Numbered from the stretch's first letter, positions 1 to 7,043 are shown. The stretch is DNA of 64,000 nucleotides from a virus (IMGVR_UViG_3300037400_003033:747-64746), one strand, 5' to 3'. The notes: a model not told the origin generated them from the letters alone. Numbers and translations: made by a program.

Positions 1-82
1 TTATCTCACGTTCCTAGAAAGAATAAAGGAGATTCTTATGAAGTATACAGTATTCTAACTTAAAATTAGTTAGGAGAAAAAT

Positions 83-850
83 ATGAGTAGAAGCTTTAAG
101 AAAAAACCTTATCATTCTATTTGCAAATCTAGAGGCGATAAATGGTGTCGCCAACAGTATCATAAAGAACGCAGACAGAAAGATAGGAGATTGTGTAAAG
201 AAATGGAAGGTCGTATTGATAAAGAACTTCTTTACAATGATCGTTGCTTTCTTTGCACAAAAGATGGTGTTCAGCCTGAAGAAAAGTTTATCAACGAAAA
301 CATTGATTATTCTTTGAGATTCGCTGATAAATGGGGTTGGTCATCAGATGGAGGAAATTACTATTGGGGCGGCAAAGATGAATACCGCAGAGATTTTGAA
401 AGACAAATCTTTGGCTTAGATTATAAGTATGGTATTAAGCGTCAGTCCCTTTGGGAAAAATACAAGGATTACGTTGATTTGGTTTATAATGAAGATAAGC
501 CACTTTATACAGTAGTTCTTAAAAGAGTAGTTATAGAAAAAGTAAATTGGGGTTTTTACATGCCTTGGAGTTCTGAATTTGCAGGTAAACGCAAAGAAGA
601 AAAGAAGTATATAACTACTGAGATTTATCCTCCAAAATATAAGCCTGAAGAAGGTTGGGAGATAATTCATTGGTGGAAACGAAAAAATTATCTTCTTAGT
701 CTTTCTAATTGGGATTTGTTTGGGTTTTTGTTTAGAAGTAGAATTATTCCGCTTAATTTCAAAAACGAAAAACAATTGGTTGATTGGTTCAGAGAAAACG
801 AAGAAACAATCATTGAAAAATGGATGAGAGCTTTCTTGTTGAGAAAGTAA
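83..850 (+). CDS. Hypothetical phage protein (255 aa, basic N-terminus)
   Basis: ORF with AGGAG RBS; no recognised motif. Confidence 0.8.
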   Translation: MSRSFKKKPYHSICKSRGDKWCRQQYHKERRQKDRRLCKEMEGRIDKELLYNDRCFLCTKDGVQPEEKFINENIDYSLRFADKWGWSSDGGNYYWGGKDEYRRDFERQIFGLDYKYGIKRQSLWEKYKDYVDLVYNEDKPLYTVVLKRVVIEKVNWGFYMPWSSEFAGKRKEEKKYITTEIYPPKYKPEEGWEIIHWWKRKNYLLSLSNWDLFGFLFRSRIIPLNFKNEKQLVDWFRENEETIIEKWMRAFLLRK

Positions 851-852
851 TC

Positions 853-881
853 TTGACAAAAAATAATTTGTGTTTTATAAT
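853..881 (+). promoter_or_regulatory. Sigma70-type promoter for leader 1 / tRNA cluster 1
   Basis: TTGACA (853-858), 17 nt, TATAAT (876-881). Confidence 0.9.
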
Positions 882-913
882 ATAGTCACAAGTTAAATTA
901 AAAGGAAAACAAA

Positions 914-1012
914 ATGAAAAATTCTTGGAATAATTACAGTGCAGATTCTCTCATTATTGCGACACTTAATAGTGGCGTATCGTATGAACCTGCCTATGAT
1001 CCAAGAACGTGA
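914..1012 (+). CDS. Leader peptide 1 (32 aa, MKNSWNNYSADSLIIATLNSGVSYEPAYDPRT)
   Basis: AAGGA RBS, ATG 914, TGA 1010-1012; between promoter and terminator ahead of tRNA cluster; not in ORF track. Confidence 0.8.
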   Translation: MKNSWNNYSADSLIIATLNSGVSYEPAYDPRT

Positions 1013-1066
1013 CGGAAGCTGAGTTTATTATATAAAGGCTTCTGACGCAAATCAGAAGCCTTTTTT
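1013..1066 (+). terminator. Attenuator 1: intrinsic terminator with overlapping antiterminator
   Basis: AAAGGCTTCTGA-cgcaaa-TCAGAAGCCTTT plus T run (1034-1066); CGGAAGCT (1013-1020) can pair with GGCTTCTG (1037-1044). Confidence 0.8.
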
Positions 1067-1071
1067 ATTTT

Positions 1072-1154
1072 CGGTTCGTGGTGAAATTGGCAGCACACGC
1101 TAGACTTAGGATCTAGTGCCGCGAGGCGTGAGAGTTCGAGTCTCTCCGAGCCGA
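1072..1154 (+). tRNA. tRNA-Leu(TAG)
   Basis: Cloverleaf, CTAGA-CTTAGGA-TCTAG anticodon arm, long variable arm, GTTCGAGTC T-loop. Confidence 0.95.
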
Positions 1155-1163
1155 CTAACATTT

Positions 1164-1236
1164 GGGATATTGGTAAAATGGTGCATACGCCTGACTGTCA
1201 CTCAGGAGAGCGCGGGTTCAATTCTCGCATATCCCG
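1164..1236 (+). tRNA. tRNA-Asp(GTC)
   Basis: GGGATAT/ATATCCC acceptor; CCTGA-CTGTCAC-TCAGG. Confidence 0.95.
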
Positions 1237-1244
1237 CTACTTAT

Positions 1245-1329
1245 TGGTAGGTGTGCCGAATGGCTGAAGGCAGCGGACTGTAAATCCGTGACATCAGAAA
1301 CGTTGGGGGTTCGAGTCCCTCCCTGCCAA
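1245..1329 (+). tRNA. tRNA-Tyr(GTA)
   Basis: TGGTAGG/CCTGCCA acceptor; GCGGA-CTGTAAA-TCCGT; long variable arm. Confidence 0.95.
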
Positions 1330-1338
1330 CTAAAATTT

Positions 1339-1409
1339 GGGTTAGTAGTAAAATGGTTATACAGCGGACTGTTAATCCGTAGACGCAGGTTCAATTCCTG
1401 CCTAGCCCG
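1339..1409 (+). tRNA. tRNA-Asn(GTT)
   Basis: GGGTTAG/CTAGCCC; GCGGA-CTGTTAA-TCCGT. Confidence 0.95.
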
Positions 1410-1415
1410 CTTTAT

Positions 1416-1488
1416 CTGTGTGTGGGAGAGCGGTTAATCCACTTGTTTTGGGAACAAGGCTTCGTAGGTTCGAGTCCTACCATACAGA
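1416..1488 (+). tRNA. tRNA-Pro(TGG)
   Basis: CTGTGTG/CATACAG; CTTGT-TTTGGGA-ACAAG. Confidence 0.92.
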
Positions 1489-1593
1489 CTACCCCCGAGT
1501 TGGGCGGGATTAGGTATACAATACCCAACGACAATTACTCTTTGCAAAGAGAGTGCGGTCTTTCACATTCTACCTAATGAATGTGAGCATTTT

Positions 1594-1681
1594 GGAGTAT
1601 TGAGTTAGCGGCTATACGGGCGGTCTTGAAAACCGTTGACATGCGATGAGCGTGGCGCAAGTTCGAGTCTTGCATACTCCG
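1594..1681 (+). tRNA. tRNA-Ser(TGA)
   Basis: GGAGTAT/ATACTCC; GCGGT-CTTGAAA-ACCGT; long variable arm. Confidence 0.95.
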
Positions 1682-1813
1682 CTAAGATTAAAGCGCCTTT
1701 GATGGGATTCTCTAATTAGCCCATCAATTAAAACTAAATGGCAACGCGCTAGTTAGATGTATAAGTTGAGCATTTGGTAAGCAAAGGTTCTGCAAGGTCG
1801 CCTTTGGTTTTTT

Positions 1814-1887
1814 GGGACGGTAGTTCAATTGGCTAGAATACGTGATTTGTAATCATGAGGTTGGGGGTTCGATTCCCTCGCCTTCCG
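1814..1887 (+). tRNA. Atypical tRNA: TGT (Thr) anticodon on a tRNA-Ala-like body, imperfect acceptor stem
   Basis: 5' part identical to the tRNA at 1984 except anticodon TGT vs TGC; acceptor GGGACGG/GCCTTCC with G3-U70 and two mismatches. Confidence 0.65.
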
Positions 1888-1983
1888 AAAAAATGACTCC
1901 CCGTTTCTTGCGCAGAAACTTGAATGAGTAAAAATCGAAAGGTTTAACCGAACTTTATTCTAGGTAAAGATGTAGGTAATTTT

Positions 1984-2057
1984 GGGACGGTAGTTCAATT
2001 GGCTAGAATACGTGATTTGCAATCATGAGGTTGGGAGTTCGATGCTCCCCCGCTCCA
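1984..2057 (+). tRNA. tRNA-Ala(TGC)
   Basis: CGTGA-TTTGCAA-TCATG; G3-U70 pair; A73. Confidence 0.9.
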
Positions 2058-2063
2058 CTAAAT

Positions 2064-2219
2064 CCAAGCGTAACAGTTTGGGGCGTTTGGTTAATGAAGT
2101 ATGTTAGATCTTTTCGGGCAAACTGAACCGATACGTTTACACTCGGCAGTAATAACATCGAGGAGTGCAAACGGAACAAAACTAACTAGTCGTATGACGT
2201 CTGCGACGATAAACCCGAA
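2064..2219 (+). ncRNA. Putative structured ncRNA, unknown class
   Basis: Helices CCAAGCG/CGTTTGG, TTCGGG/CCCGAA enclosing CGTTTACACTC/GAGTGCAAACG. Confidence 0.45.
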
Positions 2220-2231
2220 CACCTTTTTTAT

Positions 2232-2302
2232 GGGCCGTAGATGGCGAGGTGCCATGTCTCTTTTGCAAGGAGAATTAGCGGGTTCGACTCCCAACGTGTC
2301 CA
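2232..2302 (+). tRNA. Atypical tRNA-Ala(TGC)-like element
   Basis: TCTCT-TTTGCAA-GGAGA; GTTCGACTC T-loop; bulged acceptor with G3-U70 and A73; D arm ATGGC/GCCAT. Confidence 0.55.
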
Positions 2303-2347
2303 CTAAACTAACATCTTAAAAAAGTTAATATTATTGAGGATTTTAAT

Positions 2348-2719
2348 ATGTTAGATAAAAAACAAGCAGAGAAAATAAGTCAATGGACAAACCATCAGCA
2401 AGTGCTGATGAAGTATGGACAATTTGCAAAATCTTCTTTAACAAAAGAAGAAGTTAAGACTCTTCGCCCTGAAAGAGACGAAAAGTTTATTAACAGTGTT
2501 ATCCTTACACCTTGTGTTATTTGTATGACACCTAATGAAACAGAAGACAGATTCTATCCAGAATTTTGGCTTCAAGTAAAAGGATGGTACGGACAAGACA
2601 AATCTTGGGTATGTTTTTCTCCTAATGGAAAGGAAGAGATAAAAACATTTTTGAAGATTGCTAAAAAACATCTTTCTTCTGCTACAATTAAAGAGGAAGT
2701 AAATTACTTCCCTTACTAA
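2348..2719 (+). CDS. Hypothetical protein with C-terminal YFPY tag (putative head-packaged)
   Basis: GAGGA RBS; ends IKEEVNYFPY; AAGTTAA motif upstream. Confidence 0.85.
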   Translation: MLDKKQAEKISQWTNHQQVLMKYGQFAKSSLTKEEVKTLRPERDEKFINSVILTPCVICMTPNETEDRFYPEFWLQVKGWYGQDKSWVCFSPNGKEEIKTFLKIAKKHLSSATIKEEVNYFPY

Positions 2720-2724
2720 TTTTT

Positions 2725-2808
2725 GGAAGTGTGGCTGAATTGGCAAAAGCACCAACCTGCTAAGTTGGGTACCTTCGGGTAATGCACGGTCGGAACGTGT
2801 CACTTCCG
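2725..2808 (+). tRNA. tRNA-Ser(GCT), non-canonical T-loop
   Basis: GGAAGTG/CACTTCC; CCAAC-CTGCTAA-GTTGG; T-loop GTCGGAA. Confidence 0.88.
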
Positions 2809-2812
2809 TATA

Positions 2813-2872
2813 GGCAAAAAGAGTTCCTATTTAAAGAGAAATTGGGTTATTTCACAGTAATACTCTTCGCCA
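2813..2872 (+). ncRNA. Small RNA motif copy A (GGCAAAA..GTTCCTAT..TCGCCA)
   Basis: Shares ends and a covarying helix with copy at 4782-4843. Confidence 0.5.
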
Positions 2873-2877
2873 ATTAT

Positions 2878-2950
2878 GCGTTATTAGTGTTAGCGGCTAG
2901 CACGGCTGCCCTCCAAGCAGCAAGCCTCAGTTCGAATCTGTGATAGCGCT
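2878..2950 (+). tRNA. tRNA-Gly(TCC)
   Basis: GCGTTAT/ATAGCGC; GCTGC-CCTCCAA-GCAGC; U73. Confidence 0.92.
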
Positions 2951-3056
2951 CTAAGTGGTACTCTTAGAAATAAGAGCATTGGGAAAGCTTCTAAGGTGCA
3001 GAGCCTTAGCGGAACGGTTAAGACAATATGTGGGGATTCATAGACCGTTCGTTGAT

Positions 3057-3130
3057 GGGAGTGTGGCTACAATGGTACAGCAGCGGTCTCCAAAACCGCC
3101 ATTCTGCACGTTCGAATCGTGCCGCTCTCG
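3057..3130 (+). tRNA. tRNA-Trp(CCA)
   Basis: GGGAGTG/CGCTCTC; GCGGT-CTCCAAA-ACCGC. Confidence 0.93.
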
Positions 3131-3134
3131 TAGA

Positions 3135-3163
3135 TTGACAAAATTTTACTTTCGTGGTAAAAT
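3135..3163 (+). promoter_or_regulatory. Sigma70-type promoter, extended -10
   Basis: TTGACA-17-TAAAAT with TG at -15/-14. Confidence 0.85.
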
Positions 3164-3206
3164 TAAGCCATAAGGAAAACAAGTATTCCTTTAACCAAAA
3201 ATACTT

Positions 3207-3460
3207 GCGGTTGTAAGACCTAAGAAACCCTTTGCTTGTTTGGGTGGTGAGAAACAGGTCGCGCCCTAGCGTAGCAGGCGTTATGTGTAATCGTAAACAC
3301 TTCGGAGGAATTGGTTGTCCCAACGTTAGTATAAGCGGCTGGTTACCGTAAAACCATTATTTTATAAAACAATTCAGCTTCTAGTGGCTAACGCACAAAT
3401 CTCTGTTAGCGTTCCTACTTTAACGATAGGTAGGCAAGACCTTCGGCAAATTACAATTCG
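3207..3460 (+). ncRNA. Putative large multibranch ncRNA, unknown class
   Basis: Closing TTGTAA/TTACAA helix and at least six internal hairpins; no ORF with RBS; directly after a promoter. Confidence 0.55.
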
Positions 3461-3481
3461 GTAAAGTTGCCAAACTTTTAT

Positions 3482-3569
3482 GGGTTAGTCAGTTAATATG
3501 GACTAAGCTCCGCCAATGAAAACCTACAATGGACGGGCGGGAATGTGGGTTCAAGCCCCATCTAATCCA
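3482..3569 (+). ncRNA. tRNA-like RNA with Ala-type acceptor and no canonical anticodon loop
   Basis: GGGTTAG/CTAATCC (G3-U70), A73, T arm GTGGG-TTCAAGC-CCCAT, CCGCC/GGCGG stem around a 21-nt loop. Confidence 0.65.
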
Positions 3570-3639
3570 TCTTATTACACTAAAAAATGTATAGTAGGAG
3601 GATACTATACTTGGCAGGTTAGAAATAATCTGCCATCAT

Positions 3640-3712
3640 GGTTCTTAGGACAAAAAGGTTGAGTCGCCACCCTTTCAAGGTGGAGGAGTGGGTTCGATCC
3701 CCGCAAGAACTA
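3640..3712 (+). tRNA. tRNA-Glu(TTC)
   Basis: GGTTCTT/AAGAACT; CCACC-CTTTCAA-GGTGG. Confidence 0.9.
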
Positions 3713-3936
3713 TCGGGAGAAAATCCAATAAGTCGCTCGGAGTAATCGACGAAAATTACGCGCGTTAAAGTAGTTGATGAATTATACGAGAGTGCTACCC
3801 TGATTAAAGGTAGTGGTGGAAGTTGTCGGCGGATAACGTTCATGCCACCTAAATAAAGGCTTACGCAAACCCTTAAGGGATAAGCCAGAAAATGATAAAG
3901 GTATACTGTAAGTTTCACCACACAGGACTTTCCCTT
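3713..3936 (+). ncRNA. Putative structured ncRNA, unknown class
   Basis: Hairpins GTCG/CGAC, CTACC/GGTAG, GGTGG/CCACC, GGCTTA/TAAGCC. Confidence 0.45.
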
Positions 3937-4012
3937 CGAGGTGTATCCCCTCACTCTGATAAGGTGTTGAAAGGGTAGTTGGTTCAGGCAGGTTCAACTC
4001 CTGCGACCTCGA
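3937..4012 (+). tRNA. Atypical tRNA-Ile(GAT)-like element lacking a D arm
   Basis: CGAGGTG/GACCTCG acceptor, CACT-CTGATAA-GGTG, T arm GCAGG-TTCAACT-CCTGC, CTA trailer. Confidence 0.55.
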
Positions 4013-4046
4013 CTAAACCCATTAAGCGATTGGGTAAACACATCGC

Positions 4047-4075
4047 TTGACAAATTTCATTCTTTATGATAAGAT
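4047..4075 (+). promoter_or_regulatory. Sigma70-type promoter
   Basis: TTGACA-17-TAAGAT with extended TG. Confidence 0.75.
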
Positions 4076-4098
4076 AATTACATAAAGAATTTATTCGT

Positions 4099-4175
4099 TT
4101 CGGGTTGGAGCACTGGTTGTGGCTCACCAGCCTCATAAGCTGGACATCGGGACTGTTCGATTCGGTCACCCGAGA
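4099..4175 (+). tRNA. tRNA-Met/Ile2 (CAT)
   Basis: TTCGGGT/ACCCGAG; CCAGC-CTCATAA-GCTGG; lacks the three G-C anticodon-stem pairs of initiators. Confidence 0.85.
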
Positions 4176-4227
4176 CCTTGCTAGATAACTTAGTAAAGAA
4201 GTATTGCGGGGATAGGCTCCCGACGAG

Positions 4228-4298
4228 AAGGAAATGGTGTAAGAGTAACACAGTAGCCTGGGGGGCTAACGTTTCGGATTTACGACCCGATTTCCGAG
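4228..4298 (+). tRNA. Degenerate tRNA-Pro(GGG)-like element
   Basis: D arm GTGT/ACAC, TAGC-CTGGGGG-GCTA, non-canonical T-loop TTTACGA, 5-bp acceptor. Confidence 0.45.
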
Positions 4299-4323
4299 GG
4301 CTAGTTGATTAAGTTATCGAACT

Positions 4324-4500
4324 TGCTACACGAAGAAAGTGTTGTCTGACTTTTATTGGACAATCGGTCACCGTCTTTTATCAGACCCTGATGGTAGCAT
4401 TTTACGACAACCTGAATAGGCGGTGAATTGTGGTTGTCATTGTCTAGAAATGGCGGTTGAAGACCTTAAAAGAGAAGTGGCTTTGCCACTTCTTATCGCC
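4324..4500 (+). ncRNA. Putative structured ncRNA, unknown class
   Basis: TGCTAC/GTAGCA, GACAAC/GTTGTC, AGAAGTGGC/GCCACTTCT helices. Confidence 0.4.
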
Positions 4501-4533
4501 CGCTTACAAGTTAATTTTATAGGAGAAAAGAAT

Positions 4534-4638
4534 ATGTTTACAACAGTATTTACCAAGACAGTTAAAACTACTCATAAACAGCACACAGTCTTTATGTGTA
4601 AACATATTGCTGAGTCTTCAGGAGAAAATATCAAGTGA
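4534..4638 (+). CDS. Leader peptide 2 (34 aa, MFTTVFTKTVKTTHKQHTVFMCKHIAESSGENIK)
   Basis: AGGAG RBS then ATG 4534 (track ORF 4423-4638 is over-extended); followed by terminator and tRNA cluster 2. Confidence 0.85.
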   Translation: MFTTVFTKTVKTTHKQHTVFMCKHIAESSGENIK

Positions 4639-4667
4639 CGATGTAGAAAAAACTTGTATTTTGTTTT

Positions 4668-4699
4668 GAAGGCTTAGTAGAAATACTAAGCCTTTTTTT
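4668..4699 (+). terminator. Attenuator 2 terminator (antiterminator partner at 4608-4619)
   Basis: AAGGCTTAGTA-gaaa-TACTAAGCCTT plus T run; TGCTGAGTCTTC pairs 12 bp with GAAGGCTTAGTA. Confidence 0.85.
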
Positions 4700-4706
4700 A
4701 TTTTAT

Positions 4707-4777
4707 CCGCAGGTTGCATAATGGTAGTGCTTTGGACTGAAGATCCAAAAGTTGGGGTTCGATTCCCTGTCTGCGGG
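4707..4777 (+). tRNA. tRNA-Phe(GAA)
   Basis: CCGCAGG/TCTGCGG; TTGGA-CTGAAGA-TCCAA. Confidence 0.9.
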
Positions 4778-4781
4778 CTAT

Positions 4782-4843
4782 GGCAAAAGGTGTTCCTATG
4801 CTGATGAAGCAATACACTGTTAATGTATCTATACACCTCGCCA
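4782..4843 (+). ncRNA. Small RNA motif copy B
   Basis: Related to 2813-2872; has ATACA-CTGTTAA-TGTAT hairpin with an anticodon-like loop. Confidence 0.5.
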
Positions 4844-4848
4844 AATTT

Positions 4849-4919
4849 GCTGAGTGGTAGGACGGCTCCTATTCCCCCTCATAAAGGGAAGAAACTTTGG
4901 TCGGCACAAAGATTCAGTA
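4849..4919 (+). tRNA. Atypical tRNA (CAT anticodon; Met or Ile2), non-canonical T-loop
   Basis: GCTGAGT/ATTCAGT; loop CTCATAA; T arm CTTTG-GTCGGCA-CAAAG. Confidence 0.6.
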
Positions 4920-4922
4920 TAC

Positions 4923-4996
4923 GGGCTCATAGCTCAATTGGATAGAGCAACGCCCTTTTAAGGCGTGGGTTCCCAGTTCAATCCTGGGTGGGCTCA
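4923..4996 (+). tRNA. tRNA-Lys(TTT)
   Basis: Canonical cloverleaf; ACGCC-CTTTTAA-GGCGT. Confidence 0.95.
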
Positions 4997-5003
4997 TTTG
5001 CAT

Positions 5004-5075
5004 TTCTCCGTGGTGTAATCGGTAGCACAAGGCACTCTGGATGCCTTGGTTTGGGTTCGAGTCCTAGCGGAGGAA
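5004..5075 (+). tRNA. tRNA-Gln(CTG)
   Basis: AGGCA-CTCTGGA-TGCCT. Confidence 0.93.
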
Positions 5076-5078
5076 TAT

Positions 5079-5151
5079 GTGAGTATGGTATAATGGATAG
5101 TGCCTTTGGCTACGAACCAAATGAACGGGAGTTCGATTCTCTCTACTCACG
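5079..5151 (+). tRNA. tRNA-Arg(ACG)
   Basis: GTGAGTA/TACTCAC; TTTGG-CTACGAA-CCAAA. Confidence 0.93.
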
Positions 5152-5157
5152 CAATTT

Positions 5158-5229
5158 CGTTCTCTAACTCAATGGTAGAGTGCCGCCCTTACAAGACGGA
5201 GGTTGTAGGTTCAAGTCCTACGGGAACGA
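5158..5229 (+). tRNA. tRNA-Val(TAC)
   Basis: CGTTCTC/GGGAACG; loop CTTACAA. Confidence 0.93.
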
Positions 5230-5231
5230 CT

Positions 5232-5304
5232 GTATCCATAGTGTTAGCGGTTAGCACAAAAGATTGTGGATCTTTTAGGATGGGTTCGAATCCCATTGGA
5301 CACA
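5232..5304 (+). tRNA. tRNA-His(GTG), no encoded G-1:C73
   Basis: AAAGA-TTGTGGA-TCTTT; base -1 is T, base 73 is A. Confidence 0.9.
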
Positions 5305-5308
5305 CTAT

Positions 5309-5380
5309 CGGCTATTAGCTCAACGGTAGAGCAGCACACTCTTAATGTGAATGTTGTAGGTTCAAATCCTATATAGCTGA
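5309..5380 (+). tRNA. tRNA-Lys(CTT)
   Basis: CGGCTAT/ATAGCTG; loop CTCTTAA. Confidence 0.92.
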
Positions 5381-5390
5381 CTTATTTTAT

Positions 5391-5463
5391 GCCGTCATAG
5401 CTCAATTGGTAGAGCACCTGACTTGTAATCAGGGGGTTGTAGGTTCGAGACCTATTGGCGGCT
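5391..5463 (+). tRNA. tRNA-Thr(TGT)
   Basis: GCCGTCA/TGGCGGC; CCTGA-CTTGTAA-TCAGG. Confidence 0.95.
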
Positions 5464-5466
5464 CAA

Positions 5467-5537
5467 TGCTCGCGACATTGCTGGGTAGTGGCTGGTCTGC
5501 AAAACCAAGAGGCACGGTTCGATTCCGTGGCGGGCTT
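5467..5537 (+). tRNA. tRNA-Cys(GCA)
   Basis: loop CTGCAAA; T arm CACGG-TTCGATT-CCGTG. Confidence 0.85.
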
Positions 5538-5541
5538 TCTC

Positions 5542-5570
5542 TTGACTTTTTAATCCTTTCTTGATATAAT
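5542..5570 (+). promoter_or_regulatory. Sigma70-type promoter
   Basis: TTGACT-17-TATAAT. Confidence 0.8.
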
Positions 5571-5601
5571 ATAATAAATCTTAACATTCAGGGGTAAAAT
5601 T

Positions 5602-6042
5602 ATGAGTAATGCTTATAACGATTGGAAAAAGGATATGGAATCATATACCAAGTTTTTCAAAAGGGGCGATAAAGCATTTAAGGGTATTTGCTATAAAGAT
5701 GATTATTGCACTGACGGAATGAATTACGAATTCTGTGATTTGTTGGTAAAGGATGTTGTTGTTCACAAACAGATTACACATACTGAAAAACTTCCACCAC
5801 TTGAAGAAGAAAAATTAGCAAATTTTGAAGACACTTTCAAAGTTCTTATTGTTCAAGTTGGAACCTCTTCAAGAAATCCTGATGGAACCTATGACGAGCA
5901 TTATGAAAAAACTCTTTATGTTTTCCATAACGATTGGTTAATGTCAGACGGAAAAGATTTGTTTGTTGTTGACGAACACTACATTAAAGAGTGGACTGAA
6001 ATCACTGAGCAGGAGTATGTTAAGATAAATAAAGGAGATTAA
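5602..6042 (+). CDS. Hypothetical protein
   Basis: 146-aa ORF after promoter. Confidence 0.8.
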   Translation: MSNAYNDWKKDMESYTKFFKRGDKAFKGICYKDDYCTDGMNYEFCDLLVKDVVVHKQITHTEKLPPLEEEKLANFEDTFKVLIVQVGTSSRNPDGTYDEHYEKTLYVFHNDWLMSDGKDLFVVDEHYIKEWTEITEQEYVKINKGD

Positions 6043-6408
6043 ATGTCAGACGAACAAAAAAAGTATGTTCAAGACTTCACAAGTGGAGACGATGAAAAGA
6101 CGGGACTCGAAAAAAGAGTTATGAATTGTGAGGGTTTATCAACAGACGATAAACTTAAAATTATAAGAGCAATTGAAAAAAGTGGAGATTCTATTTTTGG
6201 TGTACCACCAGTATATAGTGAACCATTTAAACCAATTACTCAACAACCTTGGTGGGGCGGTTTACAAGTAACAACTAACGGTAATCATGTTGATCCTAAT
6301 CAGCCAGTTCTTTATAGAACTAGTGATGAAGATTTGTTTAGTACTACTGCAAATAATATATATATGCAACAAGACAAAAGTTGCAACGAAAATGGTGATA
6401 CAGACTAA
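6043..6408 (+). CDS. Hypothetical protein
   Basis: AGGAG RBS, abuts upstream gene. Confidence 0.8.
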   Translation: MSDEQKKYVQDFTSGDDEKTGLEKRVMNCEGLSTDDKLKIIRAIEKSGDSIFGVPPVYSEPFKPITQQPWWGGLQVTTNGNHVDPNQPVLYRTSDEDLFSTTANNIYMQQDKSCNENGDTD

Positions 6409-7043
6409 TGCTTTACTGTGAAAAATATATAAATAAAAAAATTGTTGCGAGACAAATTGTTTGTTGGCTCGCAACTGTTGTTTTGTTCTTAGGAACTTTC
6501 CTTGCGGGACATATAACCACAATAAAAAAAATTGGACAAGCATCTTTTACAGATTCTAAAACAATTGAAATTCCTATTGATTGGGAAAACCCTTATAAAG
6601 ATTTAGTAAGAGATGAAATTGCATATTACATAATAGAAGTTAACAAGCCAATGAAAGGCGATAATAATCTTGCGGTGGCGATTCTATTACACGAGAATCC
6701 AAAGCAAAACCCTTACGCTGTTAACGTAAATGCAAATGGAACAACTGATAATGGAATGTTCCAACTTAATTCTGCTTATCAACTTTACTTTGCTGGCTTA
6801 TACTGGCCTTTTGATAAGTATGATTCAAATATGAGTTTTGATTGGAGTAATTGGCAACACAACACTTGGGTTGCACTTCACTTAATCAACGACCTTTATA
6901 AAGATTTTGATGGCGATGTTGAAAAAGTAATTGCTGCTTATAACGCAGGGCCCGCGCCAGTCATAGCGGGCGATATTCCAAAGTCTACGATTGATTATCG
7001 AGATAGAATTTTAGCGATTTATACATTATTATGTAATTCATAA
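6408..7043 (+). CDS. Lytic transglycosylase (SLT domain) with N-terminal membrane anchor
   Basis: LHENP catalytic Glu, GMFQLNS, AAYNAGP motifs; N-terminal hydrophobic helix. Confidence 0.9.
   Translation: MLYCEKYINKKIVARQIVCWLATVVLFLGTFLAGHITTIKKIGQASFTDSKTIEIPIDWENPYKDLVRDEIAYYIIEVNKPMKGDNNLAVAILLHENPKQNPYAVNVNANGTTDNGMFQLNSAYQLYFAGLYWPFDKYDSNMSFDWSNWQHNTWVALHLINDLYKDFDGDVEKVIAAYNAGPAPVIAGDIPKSTIDYRDRILAIYTLLCNS

Follow-up and report, generated by a model that had tools for sequence, protein, structure and literature searches.

The 64,000-nucleotide (nt) stretch of viral DNA IMGVR_UViG_3300037400_003033:747-64746, hereafter the window, carries two arrays of transfer RNA (tRNA) genes, each preceded by a unit that consists of a short open reading frame (ORF) led by a ribosome-binding site, an antiterminator and a terminator. 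Each unit is interpreted as a ribosome-dependent transcription attenuator of the trp/his type standing before tRNA genes, a reading that is given a probability of roughly two in three, and one under which production of each block of tRNAs is probably restricted to times when the matching codons are decoded slowly. This interpretation draws on the anatomy of the two units, on the alternative pairings of their leader RNAs, on the conservation of the arrangement among relatives, and on a statistical match between the codons of each leader and the amino acids served by the array behind it. The window corresponds to the 64.7-kb contig G000 without its first 746 bases, and coordinates refer to the window unless another locus is named.

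Anatomy of the Leader Units

The initial annotation of this DNA had placed a short ORF led by a ribosome-binding site, a terminator and a tRNA array in this order in both clusters, and the arrangement was borne out by ARAGORN, Rfam, and hairpin and promoter scans (Table 1); the start that it had given for leader ORF 1, position 914, is likewise correct. By ARAGORN and Rfam alike, the first genes of the two arrays, tRNA-Leu(TAG) and tRNA-Phe, start at 1072 and 4707, respectively. The promoter of unit 1 and the 5′ untranslated region (UTR) motif ACAAGTTAAAT..AAAAGGAAA are kept even in relatives whose neighbouring protein is as little as 41% identical. For unit 2, the promoter scan returned none between 4180 and 4534, and the transcript probably starts at the promoter listed in Table 1 that lies upstream of a CAT-anticodon tRNA and a structured RNA.

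The 5′ UTR motif ACAAGTTAA(A)TT..AGGA is common to both leaders (4521-4533 compared with 900-913 and upstream). It is kept in the most distant relatives, where it is better conserved than the leader ORFs, and might serve in RNA processing, in translation or in the binding of a protein. Because this motif and much of the terminator sequence are common to units 1 and 2, the two look like duplicates with re-coded ORFs. A third junction, at about 440-560 of G000 and therefore upstream of the window, has a promoter and a hairpin with a T-run, followed by Leu(CAA) and Gln(TTG) tRNAs; it was not counted as an attenuator, as it holds at most a leaderless ORF of 19 codons with 4/19 L/Q, which is not significant.

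Table 1. Features of the two leader units and tRNA arrays in the window, and endonuclease-like ORFs among the tRNA genes of relatives (bp, base pairs).
Feature	Position	Strand	Description
Promoter of unit 1	853-881	+	Perfect TTGACA-17-TATAAT (sigma-70); 12/12 in consensus scan
Leader ORF 1	914-1012	+	32 codons; AGGA at 903-906, 7 nt upstream; sensing codons about 2-29
Hairpin closing leader ORF 1	922-1007	+	8 bp, 922-929 with 1000-1007, plus inner helices (RNAfold)
Antiterminator 1	1013-1044	+	1013-1020 (8 bp, directly after the stop) with 1037-1044; inner 1024-1028 with 1032-1036
Terminator 1	1034-1071	+	12-bp stem 1034-1063, -16.8 kcal/mol; T-run 1061-1071, abuts tRNA-Leu
tRNA array 1	1072-3131	+	Leu(TAG), Asp, Tyr, Asn, Pro, Ser(TGA), Thr-like, Ala, Ser(GCT), Gly, Trp
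ORF embedded in array 1	2348-2719		123 codons
Promoter upstream of unit 2	4047-4075	+	Most likely feeds unit 2 through CAT-anticodon tRNA 4099-4177 and structured RNA about 4180-4505
Leader ORF 2	4534-4638	+	34 codons; AGGAG at 4521-4525, 8 nt upstream
Leader-2 hairpin	4531-4608	+	Start-codon region 4531-4542 with codons 22-25 (4597-4608), 12 bp
Antiterminator 2	4609-4678	+	26 bp in three helices, 4609-4636 with 4652-4678, -30.5 kcal/mol
Terminator 2	4668-4705	+	12-bp stem 4668-4695, -16.0 kcal/mol; T-run about 1 nt before tRNA-Phe
tRNA array 2	4707-5537	+	Phe, CAT-anticodon, Lys(TTT), Gln(CTG), Arg(ACG), Val, His, Lys(CTT), Thr, Cys-like
Homing-endonuclease-like ORF, L001	14470-15210		
Homing-endonuclease-like ORFs, L006	5443-6130, 7047-7700		
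Homing-endonuclease-like ORF, L008	2075-2515		
Homing-endonuclease-like ORF, L012	11127-11579		
Homing-endonuclease-like ORFs, L015	12684-13097, 13806-14501		

Antiterminators Compete with Both Terminators

Both leader RNAs can form an antiterminator helix that is mutually exclusive with the terminator, as in an attenuator. The search for these helices provided an independent test of the attenuator idea, because the earlier reading rested on gene order and composition alone. In unit 1, the 3′ partner of the antiterminator (1037-1044) is part of the 5′ arm of terminator 1, and an inner helix of 5 bp lies within it. In unit 2, the 5′ strand comprises about the last ten codons of the ORF together with its stop codon, and the 3′ strand includes the 5′ arm of terminator 2. 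When the whole leader is folded with the terminator included, this duplex is the structure of minimum energy (-30.5 compared with -16.0 kcal/mol), and it was equalled by none of 300 shuffles.

The position of the antiterminator strands is such that a ribosome finishing the ORF could mask them, as a matter of geometry: in unit 1 the strand begins at the first base after the stop codon, and in unit 2 it covers about codons 26-34. Folding with the end of the ORF masked, as by a terminating ribosome, gives the terminator only; folding with the first ten codons and the ribosome footprint masked leaves the antiterminator in place. Upstream complementarity was scored by two measures for all 34 terminator-like hairpins of the genome, comparing the 5′ arm of each with the 110 nt upstream, and the two hairpins that stand before tRNA arrays rank first (unit 2) and second by both. 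The duplexes that they can form with upstream sequence have energies of -16.7 and -11.4, where the mean is near -5.6, and folding gains -18.8 and -13.1, where the mean is near -2.9. Each leader ORF also folds internally (922-1007 and 4531-4608), and neither hairpin pairs with the antiterminator strand; in variant B and in the relative L013 the 3′ partner of the leader-1 hairpin pairs with the start-codon region instead.

Leader Codons Match the Downstream Arrays

The residue counts given in the initial annotation for the two leaders are correct, and the match that they indicate stood up to comparison with the proteome, for which the amino-acid frequencies of the phage's own long ORFs served as background. 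Leader 1 contains all ten amino acids of array 1, as do 4.5% of the 31-mers of the proteome. Within codons 3-32, 25 belong to the array-1 set, and codons 3-13 are drawn entirely from it. This amounts to 25/32 codons in set against a background of 0.537 (binomial 0.004), a value found in 1.1% of proteome windows. In leader 2, 25/34 codons are in set against a background of 0.369 (binomial 1.5e-5), which none of 16,439 proteome windows of 34 residues reaches and which only 2/387 short ORFs reach, leader 2 itself included. Its first 24 codons are limited to M, F, T, V, K, H, Q and C, thereby including 8/9 array-2 amino acids, as is true of 1.8% of 23-mers. Codons 25-34 are structural: the set rule of leader 2 stops at codon 24 because the tail of the ORF is the antiterminator strand.

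The division of amino acids between the two leaders was evaluated by an exact partition test, in which the 17 amino acids not shared by the arrays were distributed into groups of nine and eight in all 24,310 ways. For the whole leaders, three of the 24,310 splits do as well and the real split is third best (p = 1.2e-4); for the codons upstream of the RNA switch only, the real split is the single best of the 24,310 (p = 4e-5). The correspondence between regulatory codons and regulated product that is typical of attenuators is thus present in a modified form, in that the codons match the amino acids of the downstream tRNAs, and it fails in the distant relative L015.

Conservation and Tracking in Relatives

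Relatives were collected by means of a neighbouring protein of 255 residues, which has 62 relatives in the protein collection; the contigs fetched in this way gave six leader-1 variants and three leader-2 variants (ten leaders). In the variant comparison W denotes the window, and features repeated among these relatives are homologous, not independent. The leader frame is open in all variants, with 25-36 codons, and the spacing from stop codon to terminator stem is kept at 21-32 nt as peptide sequence and length drift. The antiterminator strand likewise keeps its place, which in leader 1 is at the stop codon or immediately behind it and in leader 2 within the final codons of the ORF. The position of antiterminator 1 relative to the stop codon (0 to +11) is the same in W, L016, L012, L013 and L015 and, by folding, in L009.

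The antiterminator strand of each variant complements the terminator arm of that same variant. A C-G pair of the antiterminator in the window is replaced by T-A in L012 and L007, a compensatory change, and the terminators show compensatory changes among relatives as well. The antiterminator of L013 has nine perfect pairs (P = 0.003), and those of L009 and L015 have different sequences again. Competing, ribosome-maskable antiterminators, conserved geometry and the permutation test thus support the ribosome-stalling attenuator that the initial annotation had proposed.

Between close variants, substitutions in the sensing part of the leaders stay within the amino-acid set of the array: T>S, P>S, N>S and A>D in leader 1, and V>T and H>C (two bases each), H>Q and QH>C in leader 2. 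The genome L012 has two leaders and two arrays as in the window, and among the 6,435 splits scored for it the real one fits best. In L013, a single leader stands before one merged array of about 20 tRNAs, and this leader uses 18 different amino acids in 30 codons (P = 0.015). Residues served only by array 2 make up 10/29 of it, against 7/63 where the arrays are split and leader 1 stands alone before the first (Fisher 0.018), and its Arg codon AGA matches the Arg(TCT) tRNA of the same genome. In the L010 lineage both arrays are gone together with both leader ORFs and antiterminators, and terminator 2 is left as a plain terminator. L012, L013 and L010 speak for the prediction that leader composition follows cluster content in relatives, and L015, L006 and L014, which are taken up below, speak against it. 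A scan of viral contigs for the L009-type terminator returned only an unrelated GC-rich contig, and the array behind the L008/L009 leader, being incomplete, does not enter the composition tests.

Pattern scans of viral contigs for both terminators recovered a close relative and the unrelated phage L004, in which the identical 36 nt of terminator 2, T-run included, follow a structural gene at 4466-4492 with no tRNAs. The L004 copy lies directly before a promoter and a large endonuclease-like ORF, which suggests that terminator cassettes may travel with mobile endonuclease genes. A scan for the shared 5′ UTR motif gave 47 matches, of which 44 are chance; among the others, L002 is a known close relative, and L031 and L039 are one unrelated phage. 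This phage was rejected as a further attenuator: a basic ORF of 41 codons lies directly before tRNA-Glu, with no terminator and no composition match.

RNA Evidence

Contigs assembled from rumen metatranscriptomes cross both terminators, covering 800-1127 in the first case and 4012-4439 joined to 4506-4711 in the second. The former begins ahead of the promoter, spans leader 1 with its terminator and reaches tRNA-Leu. The rumen RNA runs contain 30-40% of the words of 800-5700, as counted in contigs, and the promoter-proximal structured RNAs at 3138-3472 and 4024-4460 have the highest depth. Contigs across the terminators are compatible with read-through; since ends, strand and level are unresolvable in them, they show only presence in RNA libraries and the existence of terminator-spanning molecules. 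Termination might be read from low cover at 4572-4735 in three runs or from contig ends near 4440-4460, a reading that was rejected as contigs cannot show it.

Proposed Mechanism

RNA polymerase would transcribe the leader, and a ribosome would start on the short ORF. Under fast reading, the ribosome would have reached the end of the ORF and its stop codon by the time the terminator is being transcribed, and would there occlude the antiterminator's 5′ strand (unit 1, 1013-1020; unit 2, 4609-4636). The terminator hairpin would then form, and transcription would stop a few bases before the first tRNA gene. An early stall at a codon whose aminoacyl-tRNA is scarce would leave the antiterminator strand free to pair with the 5′ arm of the terminator, and the array would be transcribed. 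Shortage of any one of about 8-10 tRNA species would in this way open the whole array. As the sensing codons are drawn from the amino acids of the leader's own array, the products of the array and the matching host tRNAs would exert negative feedback.

That the leaders are translated and that read-through responds to stalling and to tRNA supply is inferred, and the candidates for the physiological trigger are anticodon nucleases, codon mismatch and starvation. A link to anticodon nucleases is suggested by context, namely the T4-type RNA ligase 1 (Rnl1), metallophosphatase and transfer-messenger RNA (tmRNA) genes that relatives carry beside the arrays. The balance of the evidence tilts slightly towards closed-loop control, in which multi-codon leaders would act as an OR-gate for the 8-10 tRNA species downstream, and in which the module, that is, the shared 5′ UTR, the ORF, the antiterminator and the terminator, would be duplicated and re-coded as arrays split or merge.

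Alternative Explanations

Several observations weigh against attenuation by matching codons. On the structural side, a clear 1:2 protector helix was not found in the folding of either leader, antiterminator 1 is weaker than terminator 1 (-9.6 compared with -16.8), and single shuffle tests are individually borderline (P 0.04-0.09). In unit 2, a ribosome parked on the stop codon leaves the top 12 nt of the antiterminator strand uncovered, and therefore timing, not simple occupancy, must act. On the coding side, the codon match was noticed post hoc, which makes the partition and binomial values optimistic; these p values are far beyond the reach of a few dozen implicit trials. Five off-set residues (K, I, I, V and E) occur among the approximately 28 sensing codons of leader 1, Thr is served by both arrays, several codon-level matches need wobble or expanded decoding (for example, CTC and CTT by Leu(TAG)), and the leader of L001 has the codon CAA with Gln(CTG) in its array.

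Three relatives also depart from the expected pattern. The leader of L015 does not exceed background (15/25 in set against 0.59; if the Ile tRNA is counted, 18/25 against 0.655), and its array is interrupted by endonuclease-like ORFs. L006 retains leader 2 unaltered, yet a Phe fragment, Thr and Cys are all that is left of its array 2; most of the array was removed by a homing-endonuclease insertion, and the deletion looks recent. L014 has a small tRNA set without a leader. Lastly, the RNA data consist of contigs only, in which 3′ ends, strand and level are not resolvable and DNA carry-over is possible.

The departures in L015 and L006 suit an alternative in which the units are real translation-coupled attenuators of the pyrBI/pyrE type, reporting general translation capacity or the coupling of transcription and translation, with the codon match an incidental or structural by-product. 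The structural evidence is independent of which codons are used and serves this explanation equally, and the leader-2 hairpins impose reverse-complement codon pairs (ATG/CAT, TTT/AAA and ACA/TGT). It is nevertheless unlikely, given that the real amino-acid split is the best or among the three best of 24,310, that the substitutions kept within the set include two-base changes, that the leader of the merged-array relative L013 has a mixed composition, and that the set rule ends exactly where the structural tail of leader 2 begins.

Even less probable is a choice between hairpins set by a phage or host antitermination protein, or by a bound RNA such as uncharged tRNA in a T-box-like manner, with the ORFs as bystanders. 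A strong terminator must be read through for the tRNA genes to be made, and some antitermination is therefore needed, for which the highly conserved 5′ UTR motif of both units could be the binding site. However, neither the T-box family RF00230 nor any other known cis-regulator in Rfam matches positions 1-7000 at E <= 1 (expectation value), the frame is open and has a good ribosome-binding site in all variants despite fast drift in an AT-rich genome, the antiterminator strand is always at the end of the ORF, and the codon match is left unexplained. The poorest candidate is that the leaders are ordinary small early genes with leaky terminators, the hairpin stabilising the mRNA 3′ end after an RNase P cut at the first tRNA, without any control by stalling, for although the same 36-nt terminator is a plain terminator in L004, gene callers list the leader ORFs as genes in relatives and the L031/L039 phage has a small ORF directly before tRNAs without a terminator, the peptides are conserved in neither sequence nor length, ordinary terminators of the genome lack the upstream complementarity, the leaders vanish together with the arrays, and the partition test of composition speaks against it. 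Each of these alternatives explains a part of the data, and none explains the partition test together with the placement of the switch.

tRNA Arrays and Genome Context

ARAGORN identified 21 tRNA genes within 1072-5464, all on the positive strand. Rfam confirmed 20 of these 21 and added a weak Cys-like tRNA at 5466-5537, a non-canonical gene that scores 29 bits against the Rfam tRNA-Sec model. ARAGORN misses this tRNA as well as an Ala(TGC)-like tRNA at 2230-2306 and the CAT-anticodon tRNA at about 4849-4920, which is also non-canonical and has an odd T-loop. Both the CAT-anticodon and the Cys-like tRNA of array 2 had been listed in the initial annotation; they are plausibly genuine though non-canonical, and they are kept in relatives, with a canonical Cys tRNA at the Cys-like position in L012. 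The tRNA-Thr(TGT) (1815-1887) and tRNA-Ala(TGC) (1984-2058) genes are almost identical in their 5′ two-thirds, and the acceptor stems of both are poorly paired.

Between close relatives, tRNA sequences are strongly divergent while the spacers and leaders are nearly identical, suggesting that tRNA genes may be replaced in a cassette-like manner. Homing-endonuclease-like ORFs (HNH, GIY-YIG, DUF559 and PD-(D/E)XK) lie between tRNA genes or replace them in relatives (Table 1), and such insertions appear to drive fast remodelling of the arrays. In L006, one of these insertions cuts tRNA-Phe off at its anticodon loop. In L009 (2693-3410), a tRNA is split in or next to the anticodon loop by about 650 nt carrying an ORF of 149 codons, an insert that looks like an intron with an endonuclease gene.

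Three conserved, apparently structured non-coding stretches are located between tRNAs, at 3135-3570, 3715-4015 and 4180-4505, and strong promoters at 3135-3163 and 4047-4075 stand before structured stretches. No Rfam family matches these stretches at E <= 1, save for a weak tRNA-like match at 3482-3569, and several of them terminate in T-arm-like motifs.

The window has a G+C content of about 33% and is most likely a fragment of a jumbo phage, because in relatives this neighbourhood is found on contigs of 220-230 kb. Ahead of the tRNA region, relatives encode Rnl1, a metallophosphatase and nicotinamide adenine dinucleotide (NAD)-salvage genes in addition to tmRNA; the 10 kb upstream in L010, L012, L013 and L015 also include genes for NAD synthase, a nicotinamidase-like isochorismatase and a NUDIX protein, with a GGDEF-domain gene downstream. 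Rumen samples from cattle and sheep contain near-identical sequence. Compared at the nucleotide level with 50,697 phage records, the window matches cultured phages in tRNAs only and has no relative among them.

Comparison with Known Systems

The roles proposed for phage tRNA arrays include codon compensation, an answer to host tRNA degradation and escape from anticodon nucleases, and the question is an active one. Known cases of leader-peptide control so far concern amino-acid and synthetase genes only. Full-text literature searches and the phiCbK genome paper yielded no such control of tRNA genes, neither an attenuator nor a leader peptide, within a coverage that does not extend to the older papers on the T5 tRNA region. 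The logic of classical attenuation is known; what is new here is the regulated product and a multi-amino-acid leader matched to the array. If the interpretation as ribosome-dependent attenuators is true, tRNA supply in this phage follows demand and is not constitutive, and classical attenuation extends to genes for RNA products. The units would be compact natural parts that report the availability of defined tRNA sets. Should closed-loop control of this kind also recur in unrelated phage families, it would amount to a general, undescribed means by which viruses monitor and repair host decoding capacity, including after anticodon-nuclease attack. The attenuator reading predicts that selective tRNA depletion would open one array and not the other.

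The closest counterparts are the leader-peptide transcription attenuators of the enterobacterial trp, his, leu and phe operons. As in trpL, hisL, leuL and pheL, a short leader ORF stands before an intrinsic terminator, the antiterminator makes use of one of the terminator's strands, and a finished leader would favour termination while a stall at hungry codons would favour read-through. Those attenuators control enzymes and carry a run of codons for a single amino acid, whereas the units described here precede tRNA genes and carry a mixture for 8-10 amino acids that equals the repertoire of the array. They further differ from the trpL type in that no clear 1:2 protector helix was found and in that the antiterminator of unit 2 is about twice as stable as the terminator, from which it follows that the default state of this unit would be on.

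Mixed leader codons are also a feature of the multivalent attenuators of ilvGMEDA (Ile/Val/Leu) and thr (Thr/Ile), in which shortage of any of these amino acids relieves termination. There, however, the two or three amino acids belong to one pathway, whereas here the set is defined by the downstream tRNAs and re-sorts when arrays merge or split in relatives. The pheST attenuator with its pheM leader, which controls phenylalanyl-tRNA synthetase, is similar in that attenuation acts on the translation apparatus and charged tRNA is sensed via a leader peptide; it concerns the synthetase for one amino acid and is not a phage system, in contrast to the phage tRNA genes considered here. T-box riboswitches likewise let the state of a specific tRNA set the choice between terminator and antiterminator, but they bind uncharged tRNA directly, have no leader ORF, and contain a conserved Stem I and T-box sequence; Rfam finds no T-box here.

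A last comparison concerns the problem to be solved and not the mechanism. In T4, Pnkp and Rnl1 repair tRNA-Lys cut by PrrC, and phage tRNA arrays replace cleaved or degraded host tRNAs; the units described here may address the same problem, and relatives of the phage carry Rnl1, a metallophosphatase and tmRNA beside their arrays. Those systems provide repair or constitutive supply, whereas a sensor with feedback is proposed for the two units of the window.

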